Source of the DNA: a virus
Lineage: Duplodnaviria > Caudoviricetes
DNA length: 64,000 bases
Direction: 5' to 3' (one strand)
IMG/VR virus record: IMGVR_UViG_3300043464_002149
The notes under the pieces are model-generated. The model did no database searches. It was not told where the DNA came from and saw nothing but the letters and a program-made list of their open reading frames with translations. Made by a program: the position numbers and the translations under genes. Shown here piece by piece: positions 7,860 through 25,844 of this stretch (the stretch's first letter is position 1; every line of letters starts with the position of its first letter).

Positions 7860-10800
7860 TTATCCGGTAACAACAAGTCTACCTGTTCTATTTGCTGCAA
7901 AAGTTACTGTAACTGTTGTAGATGTTATGTTTATTTCAGAAGGGAAGAACATATTATTACTACTATCAAATACTTGCGCAGTTAAGTTTGCAGTTCCTAA
8001 ATTGTGAGTAAAGCTAACACTTGACACGTTGGAGAATGTTGTTGAATTACTTAAAGCAACTCTCTTCCAAGACTGCCAAGTACCGTTGTTTTTTCCTCTA
8101 GCATACATGATACCTGTTCTGTAGTCACCGTATATTTGATGTTGCCAACTTGAACTGTATATTTGAGAGTACAGTGCACCATCTGTTGCGTTACCTGTTA
8201 GGTTGGTGCTGCTACCATCAACATTCGTTACATAAGTCATACCATTCGAGTCCAATGATTGAGCATTAACACCATCATTCGAACCTGTATTTCTAAATCC
8301 AACACCATCAATTTGATCTGCGCTCGTTGCAGTTGCGGCGTTACCAGTAATGCTGATACCCCATGTACCTGATGCATTACCACCTGTTAAGGTTGGTGAA
8401 TATGAATTATAGTTCGCTGATGATAACATTGTTAACCAGTTACCCCAGCTACCTGAATATCCTTGTCTGAAATAGAATGTACCGTTACCGGAAGTACCGT
8501 AAGTACCTTGAATTTGCCACATCGTATCACCGGCGCCCGCATGAAAAACTGGAGAATATGATAAAGCCGCACCCGACCCGTTTTCATTTCTATATACCGC
8601 TGAACTTCCGTTATTTACGTTTACCGAACCATTTCCTAAACTTGTAAGTGAAATGTTAGCCGCAGCTGTTGCGTTTGTAGCACTTGCAACTGCGCCATTT
8701 ATCTTTGAGCCCGCTAATAATGTTATCCAAGAAGGATCAGAATATGAACCATTTGTATATACACCATTTGTTACTGTTGCTGCATTACCACTAATACTAC
8801 CATTGTAAACACCAGTACTACTAATAGATGAGATAGTTGTTCCAGAATTTTGGAAAATAATTGATGGGTTTTGACCACCAGCACTTATGGTATTCGAATT
8901 AAGAGTGATATTACCCGCTCTTAATTCCATAAAGTCCTCCGCATCATTCTCAACTCTAATTGTTAATTTAGCTCTTTCGGATGCACCACCTGATGCATTA
9001 TTTTCAAAATATATCGATGCACCATCTGATGGGAAATTATTTCCCGATCTGAATTCTATACCACAGTTACCAGTACTATCTGATGCAGATGATGTTAATA
9101 TAATATTAGCATTAGTGGGTGCCCCCCAAGAACTTCTTCCTGTTGCAAGACCAGCACCAACTGTTAATCCAGCAAATGTTGGTGTATTCCCTGATCCAAC
9201 GTTTTGGTTAATCGTGAAAGCAGTAATATTAGATGCCGTACCTGATGTATTTTGATTACCAGTAGTGTTTACGCCTGGTAAATCAATATTTGCAGAACCA
9301 TTAAATGAAACACCACCAATTGTTCTTGCAGTTTGTAATGTTGTTGATGTGTTGGCATTACCAGTTGTATTTTGATTACCAGTAGTGTTTACACCAGGCA
9401 AATCAATATTTGCAGAACCATTAAATGAAACGCCACCTATATTTCTTGCTGTTTGTAATATTGTTGCACTTCCAGCATTACCCGAAATAGTTGTTTGATC
9501 TCCAGTATTTGTACCACTTAAATTAGATGCTGCAATTGTTCCTGTAACAACTAAATTACCTGTGGCGCTTTGTAATGACATTAATTCAACAGCCCCATTA
9601 GAGTACCAACCAAATTTAGGTACGGCACCTGAAGATGAATAAGCAGTATGATTAGGTACATGGAATGATAATGTTCTATTCGCAATATCAGATGCAAGAC
9701 CCATACCATATTGTCCTGAGCTTGCGCCTCTTGTGCCAAAACCATACATATACCAATCAGCAGTTGCACTATTGGTAATATTTGAGCTAAATGTTTTTGC
9801 ACCTCCAATTGTTTGATCACCAGTTGTATAAACACCATTTGTTACAGTTGCAGAATTACCATCAATTGAAACCCCTGTTAATGTTTGTGATGCAGACGAT
9901 CTACCTAATGATATTGATGTTGTACCAATATTAAATGATGAATTTGCTAATTTTGCATTTGTTACAGACGCATCAACTAATTGAGATGCATTGATTGTTT
10001 TATTTGTTAATGTTTGTGTTGCTGTTCTTAAAACAACATCATCTTCAGCACCTAACGGGCCAGCAATCCATTTATCATTTGTTGTATCCCATAATAATGA
10101 ACCAGATGTTGTTGTTGGTGATGTTGCGTCTCTAACAACAATACCTGCGTTAGTTGCACCAGAACCATTTAATTGAATGATGTTATCACCTATTGCAACC
10201 GTTGTTGAATTAACAGTAGTTGTTGTACCCGATACCGTAAAATTACCTTTAATAGTAACATCAGCACCACTTAAACTAAACGCACTATTAAATGAGTTTG
10301 TAAATGTATTCAAACTACTTGTAGCAGTATGAATTGCATTTATATTTGTATTGTTACTAGCAGTATATGAATTTAATGAACTTGTAGCGACTTGTAATGT
10401 GCCTATAACTGTATTGTTACTACCAGTATATGTGTTTAATGAAGCAATCGAACCAGTAACACCTTCTATTGAATTTAATCTACCACCGGCACTTGAAGTA
10501 AAACTATTTAAACTAGCGGTTGCAGTATGAATAGCGTTGATGTTGGTGGTGTTAGAACTTGTATAAGAATTTAAAGATGATGTTGCAGTGTGAATTGCAC
10601 TTATGTTAGTATTATTACTACTCGTGTAACTATTCAAACTACTTGTGGCAGTATGAATTGCATTTATATTAGTTGTATTAGAACTAGTATACGAATTCAA
10701 TGAACCTGTTGTAGTTTCAATAGCTGTTAATCTACTATTTTGTCCACTAATAGTTGTATTATTTGAACTAGTATAACTATTCAAACTACTTGTTGCAGTT

Positions 10801-13800
10801 TCAATACTACTTAATCTACTATTAGAGCTTGAAGTGTACGAATTCAAACTACTTGTGGCAGTATGAATAGCTGTTATATTTGTGTTATTCGAACTTGTAT
10901 AACTGTTTAATGAACTAGTTGTAGATTCAATCGCTGTTAATCTACTATTTTGTGTATTGTTTGTTGTATTATTACTACTTGTATATGAATTGAAATCAGT
11001 TCTAATTGAACCGCTAGCTGTTTCAAGAGAAGATAATCTACCAGCAGCACTACTTGTAAATGTATTTAAACTACCTGTAGATGTTTCAATTGAACTTAAT
11101 CTATTGTTTGTACTAGATGTATATGAATTTAAAGAACTTGTAGTTGATTCAATTACCCCCAATCTAGTGTTAGTACTTGATGTGTATGTATTTAGGGAAG
11201 CAGTTGAGGTTTCTAAACTACCAACTCTATTTACTACGTTATTAAATTCTGTTTCTCTAACTAATCTTTGCTCCGAACCTAATTGGCCAGCAATCCAATA
11301 GTCATTTGTAGCATCCCATAATAACGAACCTGAAATTTGGTTTGGTGCTGTAGTATCTTTAACTCTTAATCCCGCAAATGTTGCACCAGTACCATTTAAG
11401 TTGATTAGATTATTATCAACATCAAGTGTTGTTGTGTTAACATTTGTTGTTGTTCCTTTAACCAATAAGTTTCCTTTAACAGTTAAGTTAGACCCAGTCA
11501 ATTCTACAGCCGCTAATATTGATGACGTGAAAGTATTTAAACTACCCGTCGATGTCTCTATTGCAGTTATATTTGGACTAGATATGTTTTCAGTTACTTT
11601 TAATGTACCTGTAACTTCTGTATTTGAATTTATAGAAACTTTAGTTCCCGTGTCCGTGATATTACTATCACCAAGGTGTTCCGCATTAACAGATTTAATA
11701 ATTCTATTTACTGTCGGATATAATTCACTCCCAAGACTATCGTATGATTGGGGGCCCATTAATAACACAGAAGATGTTAGTGGTGAACCAACTATTGCTT
11801 GGTGAACAAACACCCATTGATCGTTAATGGAATCAAATAACATTGATCCAGAAACTGTTGGTGATGACCCGCTGTCAATAACCGCTAATCCACCAAACCT
11901 TGTACCAGGATTTTGCGCGTTTACTGTTATTAAATTAGTACCGATATTTAATGTGCTTTGAGATATAAAATTAATTGACGATGACCCACCAACAATTAAG
12001 TCTTGTGAAATATATAAAGATCCGGTAATTGTTTGACTACCTTGATATGTGTTAGAGCCAGTAGTTGCATAACTACCGGTTTTACCTTCGATAGAATCTA
12101 ATCTATTATTTTGACCTAAATCTGTAGTGGCTAATGATGAACTAAAAGTACTGTAACCAGTTGTACTAGATAGTGTAACCTGTACTGATCCTGAAATAAC
12201 ATTTTCAGCGTTTAATCTATTTTTGATTGTTGTGTTAATAGAAGATGTAAAGCTATTCAAACTACTTGTTGAAGTGTGAATTGCATTTATATTACTATTG
12301 TTACTAGTGGTATATGAATTTAAACTTGAAGTTGTAGATTCAATAACACCTAATCTTGTGTTTGTTGAACTGGTATATGAATTTAAACTACCTGTTGAAG
12401 TTTCAATAATACCTAATCTTGTATTGGTGCTAGAAGTATATGTGTTTAAACTTGAAGTTGTAGATTCAATAACACCTAATCTTGTGTTTGTACTAGATGT
12501 ATAAGAATTCAAACTACTTGTGGCAGTATGAATAGCTGTTATATTTGTTGTATTAGAACTTGTATAAGAATTTAAACTACTTGTGCTTGTCTCTAAAGCG
12601 CTTAATCTACTATTTTGTGTAGATTCAACACTGTTGTTTGAACTTGTGAAACTATTGAAATCAGTTCTAATACTAGAACTAGCAGATTCTAAAGAACTTA
12701 ATCGATTGTTTGTACTTGAACTAAATGTATTTAAACTACCTGTACTTGTTTCAATATTATTTAAACGCGTATTTGTACTTGAAGTATAAGAATTTAAACT
12801 ACCGGTTGTAGATTCAATCACACCTAATCTGGTGTTAGTACTACTTGTATATGTGTTTAATGAACCTGTAGTTGTTTCAATAGCAGTTAATCTACTATTT
12901 TGTGTTGTATTTGTTGTATTATTAGAACTTGTATATGAATTAAAGTCTGTTATAATACTACCACTTGCTGTTTCTAAGTTATTTAATCTACTATTTTGTG
13001 TAGATTCAATACTGTTGTTTGAACTTGTAAAAGTATTAAAATCGTTTCTAATACTACCGCTTGCAGTTTCGAGTGAGTTTAATCTAACATTTGTACTTGA
13101 AGTGAACGTATTTAAACTTGATGTTGTAGATTCAATTACACCCAATCTTGTATTTGTTGAACTAGTGTATATATTTAAACTTCCTGTGGTTGTTTCTAAA
13201 GAATTTAATCTTCCATTAGCACTAGAAGTGAAAGTATTTAAACTACTTGTGGCGGTATGAATTGCATTTATGTTAGTAGTATTGCTACTTGTATATGAAT
13301 TTAAAGAACTCGTTGCTGTTTGTAAACTACTTGCCCTTGAATCTATTGAAGTTGATAATGTGTTATATTCATTAACTAATACAATTCTTTCTTCACTACC
13401 TAACTTACCAGCTTTCCAGAAGTCTGTTGAAGTATCCCATAATAATGAACCAGAAATAATACTAGCACCACTAGCATCTTGAACAACAAGACCAGCATTA
13501 TTTGTTGCGGCGCCATTCAATGAAATTATATTGTCACCAATATTAAGAGTTGTAGAATCAATTTGCGTTGTTGTTCCTTTAACCAATAAGTTTCCTTTAA
13601 CAGTTAAGTTAGAGCCAGTAACCTCAACTGCACTCAATATTGATGAACTAAATGAATTTAAAGAACTAGTTGCTGTATGAATCGAATTGATGTTCGAAAT
13701 ATTACTACTTGTATATGAGTTTAAACTACCAGTACTGATGTGTATAGCGTTTAAACTTGAGTTAGTACTAGAAGTAAAACTATTTAAACTCGCAGTACTT

Positions 13801-15461
13801 GTTTCAATTGATAATAATTTACTACTAGCACTTGATGTAAAACTATTTAAACTACCTGTTGAAGTTTCAATAATACCTAATCTTATATTTGTGCTAGATG
13901 TAAATGTATTTAAACTTCCTGTAGATGTTTCAATAATACCTAATCTTGTATTGGTACTAGAGGTATATGAATTTAAACTTCCAGTAGTTAATTCAATTGC
14001 GTTTAACTTACTATCAGTACTTGATGTGTATGTGTTTAACGATGATGTTGCGGTTTCTAATAAATCTAATCTACCATTTTGTAGACTATTTGTTGTGTCA
14101 TTAGATGACGTGTAACTATTGAATACAATCTCATCTAATTTACCCGTACCAATCGCCTGGCCGTTTAATGAAATAGATCCTGTTATATTAACCGATCCAG
14201 TAACAGAAAGAGACCCACTTATTGTTTCAGTACCGATAAAACTATTTGATCCGGTTGTAGCAATTCTTGATGGATCTACATAGACAACTTGTCTATCTGC
14301 TTCAACATTTAAAAGATCCGAATATACCCCAATACCATTACCCATCATATGATGTAAAGCACAGAAATAATAAAGTGTAGATGGTGTACTATCAGTTACT
14401 TCAATTTGAATGTAATCTGGTGTTGAACCTGTGGTTACACCTGTTGTATAAACCGTCCCACCATTATGTGTTCCATCATTTGTTGTAGAGAATCTAAAAG
14501 GATGCGCCCCAATATTTGGAAATAAGAATTTATATGTAAATCCTTTTATTAGACTTAAAATTGGGCTTCTTACCCCATCAATAAAGAATTTTCCACCAGA
14601 ATCCGTTACGTTTACCAATATAACCTTATCAGAACCAAGGTTAATATTTGATATTTTCAATGATCCGGTTAGTTCTGTGTTGGTGTTAATTCTAAGGCCA
14701 TCAGCTTGAGAAATGGATGCCGTAGCAGAACCATCAGCAATTCTGGTTAAATTAAGTCCCGTAACACCACTCGCCGGGATGTCATATAACCCAGCACCAC
14801 TACCCGTAAATGAACCCGAAAGTTGTGCTGCAATGTATGGTTGTGTGTCCCCCGCCAATCTAAAATATCCAGCGCCATCTCTTTTAATTATAATTGCGTT
14901 AGCTCCCTCACCAATTTGAAATTCTGACGCAATAATGTTTTTAAGATTGTTTGATGAGTCTTTTAATTGTACGTTACCATTTTCATCTTTAGTGATTTTT
15001 GTACCGCCTAAATTGATTGTGTTACCAGCTAAATAGATGTCTCTCCATCTTTTACTATCCGAACCTAAATCAAATGAAAGCGTGTCATTTGGTAAGATTG
15101 AACCGGAAACGGTAATGTTAGTATTAACGGTAAGTCCTTGGTTAGGAGAAATTGACGCGCTAACGCTACCGGAAACAATTTTATTAAGATTTAATCCCGT
15201 TACACCACTAGCAGGAATATTATATAAACCAGCACCATTTCCACCAAAAGAACCCGTAAACGCTCCAGTGGTGTAAGATGAGGTAAATTGGTGAAAACTT
15301 GATGTTAGGGTATATGCTGCGGCGTGTGAGGTTGAAACGGCATTTTCGGCAGTACCTGAAATTGTTGCAAATAAGGTACCTAAGACTCTTAAATCGCCCG
15401 AAATTTCGCTTGAGCCTGAAACCGACAGGGAACCCGATACTTGTGGATCAAAAATATTCAT
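7860..15461 (-). CDS. Giant Ser/Thr/Asn-rich tail fibre protein (2533 aa)
   Basis: SGSL beta-repeats, a cupredoxin-like insert, 21-aa polar coiled-coil repeats, two TARxIGGVSFNGSANI fibre repeats, knob-like W-rich C-terminal modules and a terminal HNLG domain. Confidence 0.8.
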   Translation of the reverse strand: MNIFDPQVSGSLSVSGSSEISGDLRVLGTLFATISGTAENAVSTSHAAAYTLTSSFHQFTSSYTTGAFTGSFGGNGAGLYNIPASGVTGLNLNKIVSGSVSASISPNQGLTVNTNITVSGSILPNDTLSFDLGSDSKRWRDIYLAGNTINLGGTKITKDENGNVQLKDSSNNLKNIIASEFQIGEGANAIIIKRDGAGYFRLAGDTQPYIAAQLSGSFTGSGAGLYDIPASGVTGLNLTRIADGSATASISQADGLRINTNTELTGSLKISNINLGSDKVILVNVTDSGGKFFIDGVRSPILSLIKGFTYKFLFPNIGAHPFRFSTTNDGTHNGGTVYTTGVTTGSTPDYIQIEVTDSTPSTLYYFCALHHMMGNGIGVYSDLLNVEADRQVVYVDPSRIATTGSNSFIGTETISGSLSVTGSVNITGSISLNGQAIGTGKLDEIVFNSYTSSNDTTNSLQNGRLDLLETATSSLNTYTSSTDSKLNAIELTTGSLNSYTSSTNTRLGIIETSTGSLNTFTSSTNIRLGIIETSTGSLNSFTSSASSKLLSIETSTASLNSFTSSTNSSLNAIHISTGSLNSYTSSNISNINSIHTATSSLNSFSSSILSAVEVTGSNLTVKGNLLVKGTTTQIDSTTLNIGDNIISLNGAATNNAGLVVQDASGASIISGSLLWDTSTDFWKAGKLGSEERIVLVNEYNTLSTSIDSRASSLQTATSSLNSYTSSNTTNINAIHTATSSLNTFTSSANGRLNSLETTTGSLNIYTSSTNTRLGVIESTTSSLNTFTSSTNVRLNSLETASGSIRNDFNTFTSSNNSIESTQNSRLNNLETASGSIITDFNSYTSSNNTTNTTQNSRLTAIETTTGSLNTYTSSTNTRLGVIESTTGSLNSYTSSTNTRLNNIETSTGSLNTFSSSTNNRLSSLESASSSIRTDFNSFTSSNNSVESTQNSRLSALETSTSSLNSYTSSNTTNITAIHTATSSLNSYTSSTNTRLGVIESTTSSLNTYTSSTNTRLGIIETSTGSLNSYTSSTNTRLGVIESTTSSLNSYTTSNNSNINAIHTSTSSLNSFTSSINTTIKNRLNAENVISGSVQVTLSSTTGYSTFSSSLATTDLGQNNRLDSIEGKTGSYATTGSNTYQGSQTITGSLYISQDLIVGGSSSINFISQSTLNIGTNLITVNAQNPGTRFGGLAVIDSGSSPTVSGSMLFDSINDQWVFVHQAIVGSPLTSSVLLMGPQSYDSLGSELYPTVNRIIKSVNAEHLGDSNITDTGTKVSINSNTEVTGTLKVTENISSPNITAIETSTGSLNTFTSSILAAVELTGSNLTVKGNLLVKGTTTNVNTTTLDVDNNLINLNGTGATFAGLRVKDTTAPNQISGSLLWDATNDYWIAGQLGSEQRLVRETEFNNVVNRVGSLETSTASLNTYTSSTNTRLGVIESTTSSLNSYTSSTNNRLSSIETSTGSLNTFTSSAAGRLSSLETASGSIRTDFNSYTSSNNTTNNTQNSRLTAIESTTSSLNSYTSSNNTNITAIHTATSSLNSYTSSSNSRLSSIETATSSLNSYTSSNNTTISGQNSRLTAIETTTGSLNSYTSSNTTNINAIHTATSSLNSYTSSNNTNISAIHTATSSLNSYTSSNTTNINAIHTATASLNSFTSSAGGRLNSIEGVTGSIASLNTYTGSNNTVIGTLQVATSSLNSYTASNNTNINAIHTATSSLNTFTNSFNSAFSLSGADVTIKGNFTVSGTTTTVNSTTVAIGDNIIQLNGSGATNAGIVVRDATSPTTTSGSLLWDTTNDKWIAGPLGAEDDVVLRTATQTLTNKTINASQLVDASVTNAKLANSSFNIGTTSISLGRSSASQTLTGVSIDGNSATVTNGVYTTGDQTIGGAKTFSSNITNSATADWYMYGFGTRGASSGQYGMGLASDIANRTLSFHVPNHTAYSSSGAVPKFGWYSNGAVELMSLQSATGNLVVTGTIAASNLSGTNTGDQTTISGNAGSATILQTARNIGGVSFNGSANIDLPGVNTTGNQNTTGNANTSTTLQTARTIGGVSFNGSANIDLPGVNTTGNQNTSGTASNITAFTINQNVGSGNTPTFAGLTVGAGLATGRSSWGAPTNANIILTSSASDSTGNCGIEFRSGNNFPSDGASIYFENNASGGASERAKLTIRVENDAEDFMELRAGNITLNSNTISAGGQNPSIIFQNSGTTISSISSTGVYNGSISGNAATVTNGVYTNGSYSDPSWITLLAGSKINGAVASATNATAAANISLTSLGNGSVNVNNGSSAVYRNENGSGAALSYSPVFHAGAGDTMWQIQGTYGTSGNGTFYFRQGYSGSWGNWLTMLSSANYNSYSPTLTGGNASGTWGISITGNAATATSADQIDGVGFRNTGSNDGVNAQSLDSNGMTYVTNVDGSSTNLTGNATDGALYSQIYSSSWQHQIYGDYRTGIMYARGKNNGTWQSWKRVALSNSTTFSNVSSVSFTHNLGTANLTAQVFDSSNNMFFPSEINITSTTVTVTFAANRTGRLVVTG
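9245..9460 (-). repeat. Tandem 120-nt (40-aa) phage fibre repeat, about 2 copies
   Basis: ARxIGGVSFNGSANIDLPGVNTTGNQNT occurs twice with near-identical DNA. Confidence 0.85.
10300..14110 (-). repeat. Arrays of 21-aa (63-nt) LN[ST][YF]TSSxNxR[LI]xx[IL]E[ST]xTxS repeats (boundaries approximate)
   Basis: Directly visible in the translation, in three blocks separated by globular-looking inserts. Confidence 0.85.
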
Positions 15462-15537: not shown

Positions 15538-16185
15538 TTAAATTATTCCTGTGAATGGAGATTCCCCTTTGTTTAGTCTTACTCTAAATGAATCGGATAA
15601 AATATATCTTTCATATAAGGTATCGTTTAGGTCCACACCAATATAATCTAAAATATCTTTAAGTGTTGTTTTATCCCTATTTACATATATATCCTCAAAA
15701 TATACTATTGGGTAACCCCTATCAGATATCTCATGTAATTTCTTAGATTCTTCATTAAATATATTTTTTCTATACTCAACGTGCCCCTCTTCAATACCAT
15801 CAAAATCATAGTATTGTCTTTTATGCCAAGTACTTGTTTTACCTTTAATTGCGTGATATGTAAAACTCTCACTTTGTGAGGTTTTATCTTTCCTATCTAA
15901 AATTATGATTTTTTCAAAATATTTAAAAAACCAATCCCAATATGCCTCGTCATTACCTATTAGTTCTTTTGGTCTATGAATTTCACTAAGAAATGTTTTT
16001 ATAAAAACATTGTTCTTATTATTATAAAAATCCGGACTGTAAACATTTCTGTTTAGTTTTTCATGTAAATATTGGTTGAATGGTTCGATGTGGCATATAT
16101 ATCCAATCGGTTCTAGATGCTCTCGTATTAAATGAAAAAGAGTTGTTGAGCCAGTTCGTTCACTTGTTAATATCGCTATTCTCAT
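15538..16185 (-). CDS. Sulfotransferase (P-loop 5'-PSB type)
   Basis: N-terminal LTSERTGSTTL 5'-PSB loop and IILDRKD 3'-PB-like strand. Confidence 0.7.
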   Translation of the reverse strand: MRIAILTSERTGSTTLFHLIREHLEPIGYICHIEPFNQYLHEKLNRNVYSPDFYNNKNNVFIKTFLSEIHRPKELIGNDEAYWDWFFKYFEKIIILDRKDKTSQSESFTYHAIKGKTSTWHKRQYYDFDGIEEGHVEYRKNIFNEESKKLHEISDRGYPIVYFEDIYVNRDKTTLKDILDYIGVDLNDTLYERYILSDSFRVRLNKGESPFTGII

Positions 16186-16916
16186 ATAATAGATTTAGAT
16201 CGTTTAACGACCCCATCAATATATCTATCAACAAATTCCACCAATTCCGGTGTTCTTGTTACTGCACAATAATCTAAATTCGTCTTATTTTTATATATTA
16301 ACTTAAAATCAACATTAAATTTATTTGACATATAATCTTCAAGTTCTTTTAAATTATTAAAATCAAACTGTTTAACAATAACTTTATCATTTGTAATCCA
16401 TTGATACTGTGAAACAAAACTAAAGATATGTACGGTATATCTTTCTATAAATCCCCCATCTATAGGGTATTCTTTTGAGATACCTAATTTATCAACTAAT
16501 TTAATTAGTAATGATTTTCTAGATTCAAGTGAGTTATATGCATTGCAAAATTCTAAATGATTTTCTTTTATAAAATTGATTATAAACTCATTACCTACGT
16601 TTTTAATTTTTTCGCCTAGAGTACTATTAATTGAGTTTACCATAGCCTCTACGAAATATTTCCAAGCAGATATGAATCTGTCTGTAGAATCTCTAATTAT
16701 GGCTATATATTCAAAATTAGTTCCAAATCTTTCTAATAAATCATTTATAGTTGAGTGGAGGTGTTTTTCCGTATTTTTATAATCCGACTTTAACTGATTC
16801 TCCCAAATCTTACTTGGATATTTTAAATCAAATTCATATTCAACGCATGTATGTTCCATAGACCAAGACGCGTTTTTAGGTATTGGTATAAATACCACTT
16901 TATCATCAATAACCAT
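16182..16916 (-). CDS. Sulfotransferase family 2-like protein
   Basis: FIPIPKNASWS and IIRDSTDRFISAW match the HIPKxAxxS and xRDPxxRxxSxY/W patterns. Confidence 0.7.
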   Translation of the reverse strand: MVIDDKVVFIPIPKNASWSMEHTCVEYEFDLKYPSKIWENQLKSDYKNTEKHLHSTINDLLERFGTNFEYIAIIRDSTDRFISAWKYFVEAMVNSINSTLGEKIKNVGNEFIINFIKENHLEFCNAYNSLESRKSLLIKLVDKLGISKEYPIDGGFIERYTVHIFSFVSQYQWITNDKVIVKQFDFNNLKELEDYMSNKFNVDFKLIYKNKTNLDYCAVTRTPELVEFVDRYIDGVVKRSKSII

Positions 16917-16926
16917 TTTATTTTTT

Positions 16927-17043
16927 TTACTGAGTTACGTCTGCGTATATGAGTGTTGCAACTTCTTGCATTATAGTTGCAACATTAGTGTTGGTTGTTG
17001 CGCTTGTTAATACAACTTCGCTAGATATTATTTTTGGTTTCAT
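16927..17043 (-). CDS. 38-aa small ORF
   Basis: Hand-translated MKPKIISSEVVLTSATTNTNVATIMQEVATLIYADVTQ; it fills the gap between genes and has an A/T-rich leader. Confidence 0.5.
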   Translation of the reverse strand: MKPKIISSEVVLTSATTNTNVATIMQEVATLIYADVTQ

Positions 17044-17065
17044 ATTATTTTTAATTTATATTTTA

Positions 17066-18601
17066 TTATTTCTGCGGTCCCGGTGAATCACAAAACCAAC
17101 ATTGGTCACAACACCAAACGGCACATGTCCATGAAGCACACCAACTAAAACAAGCACCATTGTGTTGTATAAATGTTAACCCGAGCGATTCATCAGCAAC
17201 TGGTAAAAATATATCATTTAATTCTACGTTTATGTCATATACTCTTCTAGTTACATAAACAATCCCCAGATTGATTATTTTAGATTTAATTAATGTATTA
17301 TTTACATAATCAAAAAATATAATTGAGTCATTTATTCTAAATTTATTAGTATAAGCAAATGTGGTTTCTAAGGTATCATATTCTTCAATCATCATTGAAC
17401 TTCCCGGTAAATCTTCATAAACTATACCATTTTCCAAAGTTACTTTAATCATTAATGATTCTCTTGTTTGACCACCTAAATCAATAACAGTTGATGACCC
17501 TGTCGAAAATGTGGTTAAATCAGATGAGAATACCCCTGAATTAATGTCAGGGATATACTGAACTTCTCCTGTTTCTGAAGTTTCATTTTCGGGAACCCAT
17601 GTTAAATTAATGGTTTTAATAAGATCGTTTACTAAAATTTCGTTAGGGTGTTTCAAAGTTCCGTCAGCATACAAAATTGGGGTGTCATCATCTAAAAAGT
17701 AACTTGGCCCAAAATTTCTAAATGTCGGGGATTTACTCATCCATAATGGTCTAGCGTCCTGATTCATTTTACCGTTAGAATCGTATGTGGTATCCCAACT
17801 ATTGAATTTAACAGGACTTGTCATTATGTATGAACCTAAATGTAAACAATCAAGATTACCTCCATATATAATATCTAAACTTCTGATTACCCCCATTTTA
17901 TCATTTACGATGTTTTCTGAATTTGTATGAAATTCTTCCATAAATTCATGATCCATTAATGAGCTTTTTAAGGTTTCGAGGTTAGCTAAAGAATCTATCT
18001 TGTAAAATTTAGGGTAGTCAATATAATTTGTGTTTGGAAATCTAGTTTTTACAATGTAATTTGGGGTTGTCCCTGGTGTTATATGTAATTCATTTAACTG
18101 GTCAATGTTTAATGACGGTTCTGATTCTGAATTATAGTATACATTTGGGGTATATGGTTTTTCTGATATTAACCTGTGAAAATTTACCTTATCTTTAGCA
18201 TATTCTTCATCCACAACAGCTGTAGTATCATAAGATGTTCTAATAATTAAAATACCATTTCCGTCTTCAATATGTGGCACCGTTATTGAATTTTTAGCAA
18301 CTTCATAATGTGTGAATGTACCATTAATTTCAGACATTATTTCTGACATTTTATCTTTTAAACTAACATTTATAGATGTAGTATCAAATACGTTTTCTTT
18401 CTCATTATTGATAAAATTACCGTCTGTTGATATAAAATGTAAATTAACAATTGAGTTGTCTAATAAAAATTGCTTAAAGGTTCCCCAATCCAAGTCAGGT
18501 ACAATTTTATTGTGAACGTCAACATTCGTATTTGTCTCAACTATTCGTAAGTCACCATTATCATCTTTTAAGAAGTCAGTGCCTAATATAAGTGCTTTCA
18601 T
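17066..18601 (-). CDS. Circularly permuted ATP-grasp-like domain + Hint domain + 30-aa Cys/Trp-rich C-terminal peptide
   Basis: N-terminal GTDF...LRIVETNTN and YIVKTRFP...FMEEF are ATP-grasp-like. Hint blocks are FLDDDTPILYADGTLK (A), RRVYDINVE (F) and IQHN (G), followed by GACFSWCASWTCAVWCCDQCWFCDSPGPQK. Confidence 0.7.
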   Translation of the reverse strand: MKALILGTDFLKDDNGDLRIVETNTNVDVHNKIVPDLDWGTFKQFLLDNSIVNLHFISTDGNFINNEKENVFDTTSINVSLKDKMSEIMSEINGTFTHYEVAKNSITVPHIEDGNGILIIRTSYDTTAVVDEEYAKDKVNFHRLISEKPYTPNVYYNSESEPSLNIDQLNELHITPGTTPNYIVKTRFPNTNYIDYPKFYKIDSLANLETLKSSLMDHEFMEEFHTNSENIVNDKMGVIRSLDIIYGGNLDCLHLGSYIMTSPVKFNSWDTTYDSNGKMNQDARPLWMSKSPTFRNFGPSYFLDDDTPILYADGTLKHPNEILVNDLIKTINLTWVPENETSETGEVQYIPDINSGVFSSDLTTFSTGSSTVIDLGGQTRESLMIKVTLENGIVYEDLPGSSMMIEEYDTLETTFAYTNKFRINDSIIFFDYVNNTLIKSKIINLGIVYVTRRVYDINVELNDIFLPVADESLGLTFIQHNGACFSWCASWTCAVWCCDQCWFCDSPGPQK

Positions 18602-18616
18602 TTGTTTTTCTTTTAC

Positions 18617-18624
18617 TATAAATA
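18617..18624 (-). promoter_or_regulatory. Putative late-promoter motif TATTTATA upstream of the ATP-grasp-Hint gene
   Basis: The same TATTTAT core lies upstream of starts at 6690, 15461, 52041, 59507 and 61652. Confidence 0.45.
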
Positions 18625-18634
18625 TTAATGTTTA

Positions 18635-19264
18635 TTAAATTAAACTCTTTGATTTTTTCACATATTCAAAGCCAACATTACCCGCAATAACAACTCTATC
18701 TTTTGTTGAATTTGGTGATTTGTCAGGTGAATGTGGTAAAAACCCTTCCATTATTAGTAGATCCCCCTCCTCAGGAAGATAATAATACCTATTTCCGTCA
18801 TTTCCCCCAATTATTAATGTACCTTCTGTATCTAGTAAATTATTTGGCATTTGAACATAATATACAAAAGTGTATGTTGGGTGAAAAGAATTAACGAGTT
18901 TTTGTAAATCAATGTGGTTGTGTAAAGTAACCTCGCCCCCTCTTTTAAAATCGTCTTGCTTTGGTTTTCCCTTTTTAACAATATTAATCCAGGAATTGAC
19001 GTTAGTTTTATTAAAAGGTGAAATGTCCACACTCCTTAATTCGTAACAACTTTGTACCCCAAATTTAATTATTTCTTCAATAGAATTGGTTGGTTTCATT
19101 TCGTTTTGAAAATCAAAGCTCGACCAATCTCCCATGTAAGCGTAGTTATCTTTTGGTGAGTATGAGCTTGATTTTAAAAATACATTAACATCATCAATGA
19201 CATTTATTGATTGTATTTTTGTTTTATATATGACAACGTTTTTTTCAAAAACTATTTCTTCCAT
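18635..19264 (-). CDS. 2OG-Fe(II) oxygenase-like protein
   Basis: HNH...FVYYV...EGDLLIMEGFLPHSP...RVVIAGN jelly-roll motifs. Confidence 0.7.
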   Translation of the reverse strand: MEEIVFEKNVVIYKTKIQSINVIDDVNVFLKSSSYSPKDNYAYMGDWSSFDFQNEMKPTNSIEEIIKFGVQSCYELRSVDISPFNKTNVNSWINIVKKGKPKQDDFKRGGEVTLHNHIDLQKLVNSFHPTYTFVYYVQMPNNLLDTEGTLIIGGNDGNRYYYLPEEGDLLIMEGFLPHSPDKSPNSTKDRVVIAGNVGFEYVKKSKSLI

Positions 19265-19268
19265 TAAA

Positions 19269-19559
19269 CTAAATTATGGTTTTTTTTTTGATTTTTAAAT
19301 GGTTCACGTAACTATCCTCAATAATTTTCCACTTACCTAATGGACATGAGCCATATTCATTTGTAAATATTTTTTCATTTATTGGGCACCCACAAGGGCC
19401 GCAATAATGCAACCATTCTTTGTTATGTATCCCTTCTTTTCTAAATTCACATTTTAAACAAAAATCGAGTCTTTCTTTTGCTAATTTTAATCCGGTCTCA
19501 TCGGGATTAAAAGTTATTATACCTAAATTAATAATTTCTATAGGATCGAATTTCATCAA
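19269..19559 (-). CDS. Small Cys-rich metal-binding protein (DUF6171-like)
   Basis: CLKC...CGPCGC...K...CPLGKW pattern. Confidence 0.6.
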   Translation of the reverse strand: MMKFDPIEIINLGIITFNPDETGLKLAKERLDFCLKCEFRKEGIHNKEWLHYCGPCGCPINEKIFTNEYGSCPLGKWKIIEDSYVNHLKIKKKTII

Positions 19560-20212
19560 ATTAACGTTTTTTTATTCCCATCCAATAAATTAATATTCCC
19601 TGCTACCGATATTCTTTCAACCCCATCACTAAAAAATGGTGAAACATAGTGAGTTAAGTATGATGGAAAAATAAACATTTCTCCGTTTGATGGTAAATGT
19701 GATATTTGTGTTATTGGTGAGATAAAAGAATTAACAATATTAATAAATTGATTATTATTTAGTTCATTTTTTTTTATATTTTGACCATACATAAAAGATA
19801 TACTACCATTTTTAAACCCCCTCTCAATGCTTGGCTCCGATTTAATTTTTTCAGGTATGTCTACATATATAACAAATGAAATGTCTGAGGAATGAAAATG
19901 TGGTGAGTTAAAATCTTTAGTTTTTTGAAAATTGATCCATAAATCTTCAAGATGATATTTGAAATTGTAATTTGGTTGTTTTCTGTGTTTCCCAATTTCA
20001 TTAATATAATTCTCAATAAATACAAAAATTCTATCCTTAAAATAGGAAACATTTTCTGAACTATACTTAAATGAGGAATTAAAAGATATTGATTTTATTT
20101 TTTCATTAATTAGTTGTTCATTTTTACCAACCAATAATAGTTCTTCACATAATTGCATATCGACATTAACGCTCATCAATTCTGGACCAAAATTATACTT
20201 TTTAAATTCCAT
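19556..20212 (-). CDS. 2OG-Fe(II) oxygenase-like protein (TIGR02466-like)
   Basis: WINFQ...NSPHFH...SFVIYV...GEMFIFPSYLTHYV...RISVAGN. Confidence 0.8.
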   Translation of the reverse strand: MEFKKYNFGPELMSVNVDMQLCEELLLVGKNEQLINEKIKSISFNSSFKYSSENVSYFKDRIFVFIENYINEIGKHRKQPNYNFKYHLEDLWINFQKTKDFNSPHFHSSDISFVIYVDIPEKIKSEPSIERGFKNGSISFMYGQNIKKNELNNNQFINIVNSFISPITQISHLPSNGEMFIFPSYLTHYVSPFFSDGVERISVAGNINLLDGNKKTLI

Positions 20213-20772
20213 TATATTAATGTTTTTTTATGATTTTCAATCTTCTTTAATTTTAACCAACTAACTAACGAATATCTAGTACCCGATTCTATTGGCATTA
20301 CTCTATGAAAGACGTTCGACGGGAAAATATATAAATTACCGGCACCAAATTCCATTTTAGTTTGTTTATTATTTATTATCAATTCAAAATCACCCCCAGT
20401 GTAATTTTCATTTAATTGGATTACAATAGTATAGAATCTATCCTTAAATATTGTGTCATTAGAGTCTATGTGCCAATCAAAATAATCTCCCACATTATAT
20501 TTTGTAAATTGAAATGTTTCAATAGAGGGTTCAAAACCTTTTATTTTAACTTTTTCCATTACTTTTGAAAGCGTTATATTATTAATATGTCCTAGGTCAT
20601 CAATAAATGCAACCTTTGATTTTCGAGTTTCTTTTTTATTTAATTTAATAAGCTCAATTTCGGAATATGTTTCAGCGTCTAACAAATCAAGTTCATCTAA
20701 ACATTTTTTTATTATCGCCCCACATTCTTCTTTAGGTAAAAATTCAGTAATGGTGTATATATTATTGATCAT
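20212..20772 (-). CDS. Prolyl-4-hydroxylase-like 2OG-Fe(II) oxygenase
   Basis: QFTKY...WHID...YTGGDF...FPSNVFHRV...GTRYSLVSW. Confidence 0.85.
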   Translation of the reverse strand: MINNIYTITEFLPKEECGAIIKKCLDELDLLDAETYSEIELIKLNKKETRKSKVAFIDDLGHINNITLSKVMEKVKIKGFEPSIETFQFTKYNVGDYFDWHIDSNDTIFKDRFYTIVIQLNENYTGGDFELIINNKQTKMEFGAGNLYIFPSNVFHRVMPIESGTRYSLVSWLKLKKIENHKKTLI

Positions 20773-20773
20773 T

Positions 20774-20980
20774 TTATTTTTTTAACCCGAATTTTATCCA
20801 TTTATACCAAACCCTTTCATGTAAAAAATATATAATTGGTTTTAATACAAGTTCACCTAAACCAACCATACCAGCCCACTTTAATGGTAGTCCAGCAGAT
20901 ACTGTTAAGATTATTGTAGTTAAAGTACCTACAAATCTGTAACTAATACTTTTAGCTATGTGTCGTTTTACCTGTGGCAT
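20774..20980 (-). CDS. DUF2061-like small membrane protein
   Basis: KSISYRFVGT...YFLHERVW signature. Confidence 0.8.
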   Translation of the reverse strand: MPQVKRHIAKSISYRFVGTLTTIILTVSAGLPLKWAGMVGLGELVLKPIIYFLHERVWYKWIKFGLKK

Positions 20981-21317
20981 CTATTTCTCCTTTTCTAATT
21001 TTAGTTCCGCTTATTTCAGCAATTTCTGTAGGTGGTTCGTGGTATATTACTTCATACCCAACACCCCTACCATAATTAACAGATTCAATATCTGGGATAA
21101 TAGATATCATGATCTTATCCCAATTATTTTGAAAGAATGGTTCGTTTTGTAACATGAATAACACTTCTTGTGCTGTTTTGGGGTTATTTTCATCAACTTG
21201 CACATCTCTAATTGCTACCCAAACGTTTTTCCCTTTGTTTAATTGTTGGTTAATCAACCATTCGTGTCCAGCATGCCAATTTTGCCATCTCCCAATGTAA
21301 ATTGCATATTTTTTCAT
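20952..21317 (-). CDS. HxGH nucleotidyltransferase (cytidylyltransferase/ATP-sulfurylase superfamily)
   Basis: GRWQNWHAGH and ISGTKIR (HIGH/KMSKS-like) motifs. Confidence 0.75.
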   Translation of the reverse strand: MKKYAIYIGRWQNWHAGHEWLINQQLNKGKNVWVAIRDVQVDENNPKTAQEVLFMLQNEPFFQNNWDKIMISIIPDIESVNYGRGVGYEVIYHEPPTEIAEISGTKIRKGEIDATGKTTHS

Positions 21318-21748
21318 GGTAATATAATATTAAGTAATTTATTAGTGGTTTCTTCTATTGTTTGATTTGTGGTATCTAGATCCAAATAATTTTCAGTAGG
21401 TGGATCATAGTCATTAACTGCAAAATGTTCTCTACCTCTAATTTCGGTGGTGTAAACATAAATTTCTGTAACCTGATTTTCAGATTTAAAGTTTTCTCTT
21501 TGATCTTTATAGGGAGAAACTAATGAAACAACAACCGAATACCCCTTGATACTCAAGAACTTAGCAATATCCTGTGCTCTTTCGATGTTTTTACGCCTAC
21601 CTGCTTCGGAATAATCTTTATTTTTAAAAATATCACGTAGATCATCACCGTCAATATGAACGGTAGTTTCAGCTGGAAGATGTTTTATTAATTCTAGCGC
21701 TAAGGTTGTTTTCCCTGATCCGGGTTGACCTGTAAACCAATATATCAT
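21314..21748 (-). CDS. cysC: Adenylyl-sulfate (APS) kinase
   Basis: WFTGQPGSGKTT P-loop, IDGDDLR, RRKNIER, VSLVSPY, YDPP. Confidence 0.9.
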   Translation of the reverse strand: MIYWFTGQPGSGKTTLALELIKHLPAETTVHIDGDDLRDIFKNKDYSEAGRRKNIERAQDIAKFLSIKGYSVVVSLVSPYKDQRENFKSENQVTEIYVYTTEIRGREHFAVNDYDPPTENYLDLDTTNQTIEETTNKLLNIILP

Positions 21749-21784: not shown

Positions 21785-22930
21785 TTAAATCATACCTCTA
21801 TTATAGAACCTAAAACCAGTTACCTTTTCATATAATTTTTCACCCGGAGATAGGTTTGGTAACCCCAAATTCAAATCTTGGTTTTTAATTATAAAATGTT
21901 CATTGATTTTATATAACCAATCAACACCAAAATTATGTGCTATTTGACCAATAACAAGACATTGAATTATTGGTGACCATTTGTGATGACTTAAATGCCA
22001 TATACCGCCAAAATCATGATTAAAAAAGTCTTTTAAGCCATATAAACTTTCTATTGTATGCTCATTTCTTCTTAGATCTACACCACCACAACAATCACAA
22101 GTGAAATTTTTATCTAAATGGTTTTTAAAAGTTAATGGAAATGTAAAATCGTTTTCAAGATAGGTGCCACTTTTACGTTCTTGTAATATCTGGAAAAACC
22201 ACTTATCACATAAAAACGCTTCGTTATTTTTAATGCTATTATAATAATCATCACTTATCTCCATCAAATTTAGATGTATCATAAGTTGTTCCACATAGCA
22301 AGCCCCATAACCTTTATCATAGGAATCTATTTTTTCTTTGTTCTTATAATAATGATCTAATGATCTTTCGGTAGCTTCAGCGAATAATTCATAATCATTA
22401 ACACATAATAAATTCATATTAGGTACTTCCCCCACAAAGAAATTTTTAATTTTATTTTCACTGTGTTGATCTTTAAAATCATTAAATGGAAACCCATATG
22501 CATTCATTGAGCTAATTAAATAGTCATTGAATCCTTTTGGGGTTGTGTTTGGGCCCAGATCTGGAAAGTCCTTATGTGCATAAATGACTGGTAGATCAGA
22601 TTTGAAATCTATTTTTTTAGTTAACATTGTATCAATATCAATATGTAAAAATCTTTCAGACATCGCTTTAAAGACTTTCATTTTAACAACACTAAACGTA
22701 TTTACATCTGTTTTTGATAAAACATCAACATCAATGTTCTCATATGGTATCCCAATTTCTTGAATTTGTTTGGCTATAGTTTCATTGGTATATAATGAAA
22801 TCTTCCCGTAGTTCTTATTTGTAAAAAGAGTACTTAAGACCTGTGAATATATCATTTCTTTCCATATGATTTGAGTATATGGTATATCCAAATTAAAATT
22901 GCTTGGTATGTAGCTATGGACAATCTTCAT
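21785..22930 (-). CDS. DUF6734-like DxD protein (putative glycosyl/nucleotidyl transferase)
   Basis: LYTN, FLHIDIDT DxD motif, CYVEQ; related to the next ORF. Confidence 0.5.
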   Translation of the reverse strand: MKIVHSYIPSNFNLDIPYTQIIWKEMIYSQVLSTLFTNKNYGKISLYTNETIAKQIQEIGIPYENIDVDVLSKTDVNTFSVVKMKVFKAMSERFLHIDIDTMLTKKIDFKSDLPVIYAHKDFPDLGPNTTPKGFNDYLISSMNAYGFPFNDFKDQHSENKIKNFFVGEVPNMNLLCVNDYELFAEATERSLDHYYKNKEKIDSYDKGYGACYVEQLMIHLNLMEISDDYYNSIKNNEAFLCDKWFFQILQERKSGTYLENDFTFPLTFKNHLDKNFTCDCCGGVDLRRNEHTIESLYGLKDFFNHDFGGIWHLSHHKWSPIIQCLVIGQIAHNFGVDWLYKINEHFIIKNQDLNLGLPNLSPGEKLYEKVTGFRFYNRGMI

Positions 22931-23871: not shown

Positions 23872-24565
23872 GTATAAAATATAAGTCTTGTTTTAAATCA
23901 TTGGTTTTATATAAAGGTACCCCCGAATTTAAAATTGATATACCTATTATTAAACCCTCACCTCTACCTAATGGTTTGTTATTAAATTTAACATCATTAT
24001 TGTTTATTTCTTTTTTTAAACAATTAAAAATTTTAAAAAAGTCATTCAGCTTTTCATCTCTACTAATAACGAAAAATCTTTCACCAATTAATTTAGCATC
24101 GTTAATTTTTAAATTATTTTTTTTACAATGATTTTCAATATGATCAAAATAATCATCTTTAATGATGTTCTTAAATTCTTGATATATTAAAGGGATTTCT
24201 AACCAATCTTCAGTATAATAAATCCCTGGGTTAAATTTTGCTTCACAGAAGTTATCAATATTTAATGTGATATCAGAATCAATATATAATATCGTCTCAT
24301 ATTTTTTTAAAGCGATTTCACAAATCAATAATTTATCCGTATAAGATTTGTCTACTTCAGTATACAGGACAATGATAACATTTAAGTCCTTAAACTCTTC
24401 TGGACTGTCAGTTAAAACAAGAATATCTACTGGGTAAGATTTATAGGTCTTAATATTTTTAATCGCCAAATCAATATAATAATTGTCTTCTTCTTTTTCT
24501 ATTATACCATTTTTAACTAATGGAGATTTAAATACAAATAAACAAATAGCTTTATTCATAATCAA
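23864..24565 (-). CDS. Putative GT-A fold glycosyltransferase
   Basis: ILVLTDSP, YTDK, ILYIDSD DxD motif, GEG; paralogous to 41686..42429. Confidence 0.5.
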   Translation of the reverse strand: MIMNKAICLFVFKSPLVKNGIIEKEEDNYYIDLAIKNIKTYKSYPVDILVLTDSPEEFKDLNVIIVLYTEVDKSYTDKLLICEIALKKYETILYIDSDITLNIDNFCEAKFNPGIYYTEDWLEIPLIYQEFKNIIKDDYFDHIENHCKKNNLKINDAKLIGERFFVISRDEKLNDFFKIFNCLKKEINNNDVKFNNKPLGRGEGLIIGISILNSGVPLYKTNDLKQDLYFIHE

Positions 24566-25133
24566 TTTTATGGTTTTGTATTAATGTTAAGCTTTGCCCA
24601 ACCAAAACATCTCTTCGCCCATCTGTAACTGGTTTTATAAAATGTGGGTGTGTCAATCCACCTGGAAAGATAATAATATCACCCAATTCTAAATTATAAG
24701 AAATGTCTTGTCTTGGAAAACAAAGTTCGCCACCTTTAAAATTATTATTAAGTAAACCAACAAATGTTAAACCACTAAAATCCCAATGAACATTCTTTTC
24801 TGAAAAAATTGTATTGTCTCTATAATAATGTAATAAAAACATATCCCTCCATTTTGTTTTAACAAAATCTTTTATATTTTTTATTGTTTCGTGAGACGCG
24901 TTTAATCCAATACCATTTTCAATATCATAAATTTTTAGGTAGTCGTCTAAAAGCGGATATTCAATATTATTGAACCAAAAATCATTAATTTTATAAAATA
25001 AACTCATATCAATTTTATCTACATCAATCCTATCAATACCACCAATATTATCACGAACTAATAATAATTCATCAATAATAGATTTTGGTATTATAGATTT
25101 AAAAACGAAAATATCTGAATCTATTTTTATCAT
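24552..25133 (-). CDS. 2OG-Fe(II) oxygenase (lysyl/prolyl hydroxylase-like)
   Basis: HWD...NNNFKGGELCFP...GDIIIFPGGLTHPH...GRRDVLV. Confidence 0.8.
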   Translation of the reverse strand: MIKIDSDIFVFKSIIPKSIIDELLLVRDNIGGIDRIDVDKIDMSLFYKINDFWFNNIEYPLLDDYLKIYDIENGIGLNASHETIKNIKDFVKTKWRDMFLLHYYRDNTIFSEKNVHWDFSGLTFVGLLNNNFKGGELCFPRQDISYNLELGDIIIFPGGLTHPHFIKPVTDGRRDVLVGQSLTLIQNHKIDYE

Positions 25134-25844
25134 TTATATTTCAATATTAAAATTAATTACACATCTATGGGTTTTACCATAGAATGGTTTAACTGAATGT
25201 ATAATATCAGCCGGCCACATCATTAACATACCTTTTTTAGGTCTTATAAAGTGAGACATTCCTCTGATATGAAACGTAAAAACACCACTGTATGGATGAT
25301 CTGCGATTGGCTCACCATCTGATAAATAATATCCACCAACAAAACTTAAAGGTGCTGATTCATAAATAGACCACCTACAATGGTTGTGTTGATTATGTCC
25401 TCTTCCAGAAGTTGGCTCATAATATTGTATCCAACTTTCTGTCACCTTTGGGTTGTTGTTATGTTTAAAATTTAATAAATTTAAAAAATCAATAAAACCA
25501 TCTGTACATCGTTTCTTAATTAGTTTAACACATTCTTCTTCTCTATCTAAAAACTCATTTGTGGGCACAAGAAAACGACTACCTATTGGGTTGAATTCTG
25601 TCGGTTCAACCCATTTATCATGTTTACCATAATTTATTTCATATGTACTTTGTCTATCCTGATCATATTGTTCAGGTAATTCTTGCCCCATTAATTTTTG
25701 TTCGGGTGTTAACTCATTAAACCCTAAATTATAAACCAAATCATGTAAATCATGATCATCAAATTGTTTCATGTATACTGGTATGGGGGCTAAAAGATAT
25801 AGATTGTCTTGACCGCTTGGCCAAAGTGGATTGTGAAAATACAT
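25134..25844 (-). CDS. 2OG-Fe(II) oxygenase-like protein (TIGR02466-like)
   Basis: ESWIQYY...HNH...PKKGMLMMWPADIIHSV...RCVINFN. Confidence 0.7.
   Translation of the reverse strand: MYFHNPLWPSGQDNLYLLAPIPVYMKQFDDHDLHDLVYNLGFNELTPEQKLMGQELPEQYDQDRQSTYEINYGKHDKWVEPTEFNPIGSRFLVPTNEFLDREEECVKLIKKRCTDGFIDFLNLLNFKHNNNPKVTESWIQYYEPTSGRGHNQHNHCRWSIYESAPLSFVGGYYLSDGEPIADHPYSGVFTFHIRGMSHFIRPKKGMLMMWPADIIHSVKPFYGKTHRCVINFNIEI

Follow-up and report, generated by a model that had tools for sequence, protein, structure and literature searches.

A phage gene cassette with the parts of a sulfation pathway and a candidate minimal ATP sulfurylase

A virus genome of the class Caudoviricetes (IMG/VR record IMGVR_UViG_3300043464_002149), of which we analysed a 64,000-nt stretch (hereafter the window, meaning this whole stretch), carries a gene cassette that probably encodes a self-contained sulfation pathway. 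The cassette lies on the minus strand between positions 15,538 and 21,748, and the kinase gene comes first in its order of transcription. The parts expected of such a pathway are all present and intact: a relative of adenosine 5′-phosphosulfate (APS) kinase with a shortened lid, a 121-aa nucleotidyltransferase of the HxGH superfamily (NT), and two sulfotransferases (Table 1). Judging from its gene fusions and genomic neighbours, the NT quite likely acts on APS, and its most likely identity is a minimal ATP sulfurylase derived from nicotinamide mononucleotide adenylyltransferase (NMNAT). The preliminary description of this DNA had recognised five genes here, namely a cysC-like gene, an overlapping HxGH nucleotidyltransferase and DUF2061 gene, and two sulfotransferases; all five are confirmed.

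In the proposed scheme, the NT would convert ATP and sulfate to APS and pyrophosphate. The translationally coupled short-lid kinase would then phosphorylate the 3′-OH of APS to give 3′-phosphoadenosine 5′-phosphosulfate (PAPS), pulling the unfavourable first step forward, and both sulfotransferases would use the PAPS; homology supports these second and third steps well. Synteny suggests that the target is a product of the conserved cassette itself. A hydroxylated peptide or protein would fit better than a glycan, given that the cassette encodes 2-oxoglutarate (2OG) oxygenases, a Cys-rich protein of 96 aa and one of 511 aa that has a Hint-like junction and a Cys/Trp-rich tail. The sulfated product may be located at or close to the presumed fibre whose gene follows.

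The kinase and the sulfotransferases

The kinase matched the Pfam model PF01583 with 65.6 bits (E 6.9e-18; cut-off 21.1), aligned over residues 2-100 only, and all 21 matches in a sequence search of the PDB were APS kinases. Its Walker A sequence GQPGSGKT and the segments IDGDDLR, YSEAGRRKNIER and SLVSPY line up with their counterparts in APS kinases from Penicillium and elsewhere and match the APS-binding and catalytic motifs of the solved enzymes residue by residue, so the expected set (Walker A, DGDxxR, (F/Y)SxxxRxxNxxR, SxxSP) is present throughout. The canonical mobile lid, RDPKGxYKKARxGEIxxFTGI, is absent; alignment with short and full-length relatives places EIRGREHFAVN there instead, about 14 residues shorter. 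The score against TIGR00455 was 69.8 bits, below the cut-off of 138.7. The protein labelled cysC in the preliminary description is a short-lid variant rather than a full-length CysC.

The same short-lid form is conserved in phages, Marinimicrobia, Marine Group III (MGIII) archaea, Patescibacteria and others. Because it has been kept as a conserved subfamily, it appears to be a functional variant and not a remnant. In SAR11 bacteria (Pelagibacteraceae; loci L164-L166) the gene upstream of the NT encodes a still more diverged P-loop kinase of 136-147 aa, in which NADEVRK replaces DGDDLR and which scored just ~30-36 bits against APS kinase models.

The larger of the two sulfotransferases, a 244-aa protein, matched the Sulfotransfer_2 model PF03567 with 25.4 bits (gathering cut-off 22) and the galactose-3-O-sulfotransferase family phrog_3347. 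It contains the motifs PKNASWS, HLH and RDSTDRFIS. A profile of its phage family found heparan sulfate 2-O-sulfotransferase (E 8.8e-5), in an alignment that spans the 5′-phosphosulfate loop (PKxASTS), the catalytic HxH (HGH) and the RDxxxRxxS 3′-phosphate motif (RDPxxRxxS). Residues P13, S17, H52, H54, R75 and S83 are invariant in this family.

The 215-aa protein had no match in Pfam, PHROG or NCBIfam. Its family is invariant at R10, G12, K63, R98 and S107, which corresponds to a PRTGST-type 5′-phosphosulfate-binding loop (5′-PSB; ERTGSTT in the window protein itself) and an R..S 3′-phosphate-binding motif (3′-PB). The family profile matched the CurM sulfotransferase with E 6.9e-5 and NodH with E 0.022. 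The structure model (pLDDT 87) gave SULT7A1, SULT1B1, Stf0, the CurM sulfotransferase and TPST2 as best Foldseek matches, interspersed with NMP kinases, at E-values of 6e-5 to 1e-3 and TM scores of ~0.5. On motifs, profiles and the model, both proteins are credible PAPS-dependent sulfotransferases.

The 121-aa nucleotidyltransferase

The NT carries the motifs GRWQNWHAGH and ISGTKIR. By sequence it is closest to NMNAT, at sub-threshold scores: 27 and 30 bits against TIGR01527 and NF002243, for which the cut-offs are 181 and 127. The Sat model PF01747 did not match it, and the Sat motifs QxRNP and GRDHAG do not occur in its sequence. Compared with archaeal NMNAT, the NT is shorter by about 27 residues in the segment that leads from strand 4 to the ISxT motif; the alignment sets its residues 75-87 against chain residues 77-116 of the M. 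thermoautotrophicum enzyme, and in the NT model residues 76-96 have no regular structure.

The structure model (pLDDT 94.5) has the HxGH nucleotidyltransferase fold. A fold search ranked phosphopantetheine adenylyltransferase (PPAT) and archaeal NMNAT highest (Z 9.6), with NadM and NadR at ~9, Thermus ATP sulfurylase (1v47) at 8.0 and PAPSS1 at 7.1. Such a search cannot discriminate between NMNAT, PPAT and ATP sulfurylase, and the fold alone names no substrate for the NT. The preliminary description had linked the protein to Sat through the superfamily; the HxGH fold is indeed common to both, and the NT nonetheless appears to derive from NMNAT-type enzymes rather than from Sat.

A whole-library search returned 805 representative matches to the NT family, and an Atlas listing places the NT in large viral clusters of hypothetical proteins. 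Invariant across the family are GRWQxxHxGH, R37-D38, G83-R84-G-V-G-Y and ISxTxIR. Of these, GRWQPxHxGH and ISxTxIR are shared with NMNAT, and the Arg-Asp pair directly past strand 2 and the GRGVGY loop are the family's own. By curated thresholds the family is neither Sat nor NMNAT, and within the HxGH superfamily it seems to form a branch of its own that has no name so far. Enzymes of this superfamily hold the acceptor phosphate at the position past strand 2. The small size of the NT and its two additional invariant arginines would be in keeping with a small anion as substrate. The NT may have evolved from an NMNAT-like HxGH enzyme as a minimal ATP sulfurylase in which the NMN-binding insert was lost and the invariant DIESVNYGRGVGY loop and the Arg-Asp pair past strand 2 have taken its place. 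In full-text literature searches, no description of this enzyme came to light, nor any relevant paper on a small or new type of ATP sulfurylase or on phage cysC together with sulfotransferases.

Genomic neighbours of the NT family

The partners of the NT in other genomes carry much of the argument for its role. Among the best 150 of the 805 representatives, the NT is fused to an APS kinase in both orders, with the kinase in front in 32 and behind in 20, and these kinases are mostly full-length and canonical. A protein search of cultured phages found the fused form only in Xylella, Stenotrophomonas and Xanthomonas phages and one Clavibacter phage; its remaining matches were unrelated APS kinases.

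We retrieved related loci with a close 8-sequence alignment and compared 77 bacterial and archaeal loci and 80 phage loci. In 40 loci of the cellular set the gene immediately upstream of the NT encodes an APS kinase; in nine the two are fused, and in another nine the kinase gene is nearby. The cellular loci with a kinase-NT pair are polysaccharide clusters (Wza, Wzz, UDP-glucose dehydrogenase, GDP-mannose dehydratase, DegT) that also hold Sulfotransfer_5 or Sulfotransfer_3/1 genes. In Nitrospiraceae, an operon without the kinase encodes an Rrf2 regulator, a sulfite reductase and a thioredoxin-dependent APS reductase (TIGR02055, 273 bits; cut-off 235), followed by the NT. One SAR11 locus encodes the NT, then an AprM/QmoC-like membrane protein, then AprB (187 bits; cut-off 136). 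The NT thus adjoins three unrelated enzymes that share only APS as a ligand. On the simplest reading it would make APS or, in sulfite oxidisers, consume it, and would hence be an ATP sulfurylase.

Further genes were noticed in two sets of loci. The Nitrospiraceae sulfite reductase (L127:6644-9115), whose gene precedes those of the APS reductase and the NT, has 823 aa and is a fusion with C-terminal HEPN and TusA domains. In four Bacteroidetes loci (L141, L144, L152, L156; at ~9550-9950) a second small HxGH nucleotidyltransferase of 132 aa, RfaE-domain-II/TagD-like, lies between the APS kinase and the NT, and the block is followed by MetK and S-adenosylhomocysteine (SAH) hydrolase.

The phage loci show two arrangements. 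In phages like that of the window, kinase, NT and DUF2061 head a cassette of 2OG oxygenases, often a Trp halogenase, a Sulfotransfer_2 gene, the 96-aa Cys-rich gene, a ~500-aa gene and the minimal sulfotransferase. Of the 80 loci, 59 lack a kinase gene in the 6 kb around the NT. About 50 loci (L004, L008, L013 and others, at about position 10000) have NT-DUF2061 between genes for a UvdE UV endonuclease and peptide deformylase, near Hsp20, and the same cassette lies a few kb off. The one CheckV-complete genome of this UvdE type, a 202-kb phage (the source of L019), encodes a short APS kinase ~160 kb away from its NT (kinase at G237:C1:30881-31195). Sat was not found in this genome, nor in a second complete phage genome carrying a kinase-NT pair.

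Sulfotransferase genes of the two window families are present in 41 of the 80 phage loci. The preliminary description had proposed that cysC serves sulfate transfer here rather than host cysteine synthesis, and had suggested looking for co-occurrence of phage cysC and sulfotransferases. Both points are supported: kinase, NT, DUF2061 and the two sulfotransferase families share a cassette in the window-like phages, and the cellular kinase-NT pair sits in polysaccharide loci beside sulfotransferases. Its suggestion that the 121-aa protein might be a minimal sulfurylase or an APS-handling enzyme likewise gains support from the fusion or adjacency of the family to APS kinase, CysH-type APS reductase and aprM/aprB, and from the genomes described next, which pair the NT with APS kinase and a sulfotransferase and have no Sat, CysD or AprA.

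Small genomes and the known ATP sulfurylases

The ATP sulfurylases known so far are, to our knowledge, of two kinds, Sat and CysDN. We compared their occurrence with that of the NT in small genomes. For Marinimicrobia we used one streamlined family of 38 genomes, as samples at phylum and order level were too sparse (five matches each). The NT occurs in 20 of the 38 genomes, APS kinase in 21 and Sulfotransfer_5 in 22, and all 20 genomes with the NT hold both of the others (Fisher p ~7e-9). Neither Sat nor AprA was found in any of the 38. Matches to PAPS_reduct scored 18-33 bits, mostly in ~440-aa frames and three in frames of 360-522 aa; they occur in genomes with and without the NT and are therefore not CysD or CysH. 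One member of the family is a 0.97-Mb assembly labelled as a chromosome. We also considered AprBA as the source of APS in these Marinimicrobia and rejected it on the missing AprA.

The kinase-NT genomes of a Bacteroidetes single-amplified genome (SAG), an MGIII archaeon, Pelagibacteraceae and Patescibacteria were searched as well, and neither Sat nor a strong CysD match was found in them. Across 81 SAR11 genomes, the NT is present in 37 and Sat in four.

Weighing the evidence

Several observations weigh against a self-contained sulfation pathway built on a new sulfurylase. By sequence and fold, the NT is nearest to NMNAT and PPAT, and it has neither the motifs nor the Pfam domain of Sat. The shortened lid makes APS a predicted rather than an assured substrate of the kinase, and the identity of the acceptor is read from synteny only. 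The NT is also found apart from the expected partners: about 20 of the 77 cellular loci have the NT and no kinase, and several of these (Thermodesulfobacteriota, Dadabacteria) lie amid no sulfur genes. In Xylella phage Salvo the kinase-NT fusion stands amid early genes, and a sulfotransferase was not detected there with the two models tried; in the phage DLP6, one was detected. Complementarity with the known sulfurylases is not strict. Nitrospiraceae genomes with the NT also carry Sat, all four Sat-bearing SAR11 genomes have the NT as well, and one Flavobacteriaceae genome with the NT has CysD. The clearest co-occurrence is an Acidobacteriota locus (L124:5117-8259) in which canonical CysN-CysD divergently adjoins an NT-APS kinase fusion. 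Finally, the small genomes searched were mostly incomplete SAGs or metagenome-assembled genomes (MAGs).

Salvo has a second sulfur-related gene, an annotated cysteine dioxygenase 3.5 kb upstream of the fused kinase-NT gene in the early region (L001 2381-3076 and 6578-7324), which could bear on sulfate supply.

The closeness to NMNAT raises the question of whether only the kinase belongs to sulfate metabolism, acting on APS made by the host, with the NT an adenylyltransferase for NMN, nicotinic acid mononucleotide (NaMN) or another nucleotide, for example in NAD+ salvage, that merely adjoins it. The best sequence and fold matches (NadM, NadR, archaeal NMNAT, PPAT), the shared GRxQxxHxGH, NPxTA and ISxTxIR motifs and the loci devoid of sulfur genes all agree with this. 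We nevertheless consider it unlikely, as the NMNAT models score 27-30 bits where 127-181 are required, the ~27 residues before ISxT are gone, fusions to APS kinase occur in both domain orders, and the NT adjoins APS reductases where the kinase is absent. Its presence in just over half of the Marinimicrobia genomes, those with APS kinase and a sulfotransferase, is also unlike that of a housekeeping NAD enzyme; a housekeeping NMNAT role was rejected on this patchy phyletic pattern.

In another reading, the kinase-NT pair makes a 3′-phosphonucleotide donor other than PAPS, carrying another group. A precedent is the Campylobacter CysC homologue Cj1415, which reportedly phosphorylates cytidine diphosphoramidate for capsule phosphoramidation (work of the Raushel laboratory), and an altered kinase lid could shift the substrate in this way. 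Such a donor is improbable here: the kinase has kept its APS-binding motifs, in many relatives the partner of the NT is a canonical APS kinase of full length, both PAPS-binding motifs occur in the sulfotransferase families to which the neighbouring transferases belong, and the NT adjoins a sulfur-specific sulfite reductase with APS reductase, and AprB, in other genomes. We consider it equally improbable that kinase, NT and DUF2061 form an auxiliary metabolic module that boosts sulfur assimilation by the host (cysteine, methionine) and is unrelated to the sulfotransferases 4 kb off. The many phage loci with no kinase within 6 kb of an NT-DUF2061 pair, mostly between UvdE and peptide deformylase, would be compatible with such a module, as would the cellular NT genes in assimilatory operons or beside MetK and AhcY. 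PAPS is required for assimilation only where the host has a PAPS reductase, however; the phage loci hold sulfotransferases and no reductase, and in phages like that of the window the sulfotransferases are part of the cassette that begins with this very module.

On balance we favour the reading in which the NT is a minimal ATP sulfurylase feeding the kinase and sulfotransferases. A broader form of it can be offered only tentatively. The NT would be a third kind of ATP sulfurylase, with an NMNAT-derived core of ~110 residues, that supplies or consumes APS in SAR11, streamlined Marinimicrobia, MGIII archaea and many phages without Sat or CysDN. In the window it would act with DUF2061 as membrane partner and with the short-lid kinase, and the sulfate would go to a hydroxylated, Cys/Trp-rich peptide that a Hint-like domain sets free.

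The phage cassette and its possible product

The product of the DUF2061 gene matched PF09834 with 47.7 bits (E 2.1e-12; cut-off 23.1). Its gene follows the NT in the 80 phage loci with hardly an exception. Of the 84 loci that possess DUF2061, 82 have it no more than 800 bp downstream of the NT; beside the NT in cells it is rare (5 of 80 loci). In phages, then, the NT is regularly accompanied by this membrane protein. Longer relatives, of ~140 aa, consist of the DUF2061 domain alone, and none is fused to another domain. Published papers mention DUF2061 only as an iron/Fur-regulated hypothetical membrane protein. Sulfate entry and membrane tethering of the NT are our guesses at its function.

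Three genes of the cassette travel together. The Sulfotransfer_2 gene is within 2.5 kb of the ~500-aa gene in all 20 loci that hold both, and the other two pairings among the Sulfotransfer_2, 96-aa and ~500-aa genes fall within this distance in 19 of 19 and 21 of 22 loci. The 511-aa protein of the window has a Cys/Trp-rich tail and the ending ...QHNGACFSW.... In many of its ~500-aa relatives (for example L003:10000-11484, L081:14718-16202 and L078:15614-17107) the C-terminus reads ...FxVMHN followed by a Cys and a Cys/Trp-rich tail of ~30 residues, and this ...MHN|C end looks like the HN|C junction of Hint-type domains. Other family members have quite different C-termini. In one locus the 96-aa Cys-rich module is fused to a ~300-aa domain (L083:1170-2354), and a 314-aa protein elsewhere (L020:2394-3338) is that domain alone; the fusion may hint at an enzymatic partner of the 96-aa protein.

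The preliminary description had left the target as virion glycans or peptides. Because halogenase, hydroxylases and sulfotransferases surround the gene for the Cys/Trp-tailed protein, synteny makes a peptide or protein a likelier target than a glycan. A virion-associated target is possible, since the cassette sits just before the fibre-like gene.

Organization of the region

The genes are closely packed (Table 1). The start of the NT gene and the stop of the kinase gene overlap by 4 nt, the DUF2061 and NT genes by 29 nt, and the two sulfotransferase genes by 4 nt. The sulfotransferase pair ends 77 nt before a 2533-aa open reading frame (ORF), the longest of the window, whose Pfam matches are solely of coiled-coil type. 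The sulfotransferases had been described as directly preceding the largest fibre gene; the position is correct, and the identification of this ORF as a fibre is plausible. A megablast search of the region's DNA against cultured phages gave zero matches.

Table 1. Genes of the candidate sulfation cassette and the ORF that follows it, by position in the window
Feature	Coordinates	Strand	Length and basis
Short-lid APS kinase, P-loop kinase	21314-21748	-	144 aa; Pfam PF01583 APS_kinase
HxGH nucleotidyltransferase (NT), candidate minimal ATP sulfurylase	20952-21317	-	121 aa; motifs, fold model
DUF2061 small membrane protein	20774-20980	-	68 aa; Pfam PF09834
2OG-Fe(II) oxygenase-like gene 1	20212-20772	-	Pfam and PHROG matches
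2OG-Fe(II) oxygenase-like gene 2	19556-20212	-	Pfam and PHROG matches
Cys-rich protein	19269-19559	-	96 aa
2OG-Fe(II) oxygenase-like gene 3	18635-19264	-	Pfam and PHROG matches
Protein with Cys/Trp-rich tail, candidate precursor or acceptor	17066-18601	-	511 aa; no Pfam match
Sulfotransfer_2-family sulfotransferase	16182-16916	-	244 aa; PF03567, phrog_3347
Minimal sulfotransferase, unnamed phage family	15538-16185	-	215 aa; motifs, profile, fold
Fibre-like ORF, longest of the window	7860-15461	-	2533 aa

Upstream of the kinase, a 381-aa gene at 21785-22930 has a DUF6734 match, and two more weak 2OG-Fe(II) oxygenase-like genes lie at 24552-25844, which brings the number of such genes to at least five in 7 kb.

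Relation to known systems and significance

The closest functional parallel is provided by PAPS synthases and other Sat-CysC pairs or fusions (PAPSS1/2, PDB 1x6v; Aquifex aeolicus, 2gks), in which, as in the window, an APS kinase is coupled or fused to an adenylyltransferase of the HxGH superfamily. The proposed two-step chemistry, from ATP and sulfate through APS to PAPS, would be identical, and where the kinase precedes the NT in a fusion, the domains are arranged as in PAPSS. The components differ. Unlike Sat (~390 aa), the NT has ~110 aa and no PUA-like domain, PF01747 match, QxRNP or GRDHAG, and is nearer to NMNAT; unlike the kinases of PAPS synthases, that of the window is without ~14 lid residues.

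The best match of the NT itself is to NadM-type and archaeal NMNAT (PDB 1f9a, 1ej2, 2qjo; TIGR01527), at Z 9.6 and 29% identity, with GRxQPxHxGH, NPxTAxE and ISGTxIR in common. In contrast to NMNAT, the NT scores below the family cut-offs and is without the ~27 residues past strand 4 and the C-terminal subdomain; it has R-D past strand 2 and the GRGVGY loop, and its genomic context is sulfate metabolism rather than NAD. The arrangement as a whole resembles bacterial sulfation loci (NodH, CurM, Stf0, Sulfotransfer_2/3/5), where sulfotransferases with 5′-PSB and 3′-PB motifs stand beside genes for PAPS supply. Unlike those loci, the system described here is phage-encoded, its cassette includes 2OG oxygenases and a Hint-like protein with a Cys/Trp tail (and, in relatives, a Trp halogenase), and one of its sulfotransferases comes from a family without a Pfam model.

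If the NT is a third ATP sulfurylase of only ~110 residues, the annotation of sulfate activation would change, and a very small module for PAPS synthesis would be available to biotechnology. The NT is carried by some of the most abundant bacteria of the ocean (SAR11) and by a Marinimicrobia family without a known sulfurylase. Such an activity would explain how PAPS is supplied for sulfated surface polymers in these cells and their phages, and would mean that a phage can bring along every enzyme needed to sulfate its own products.

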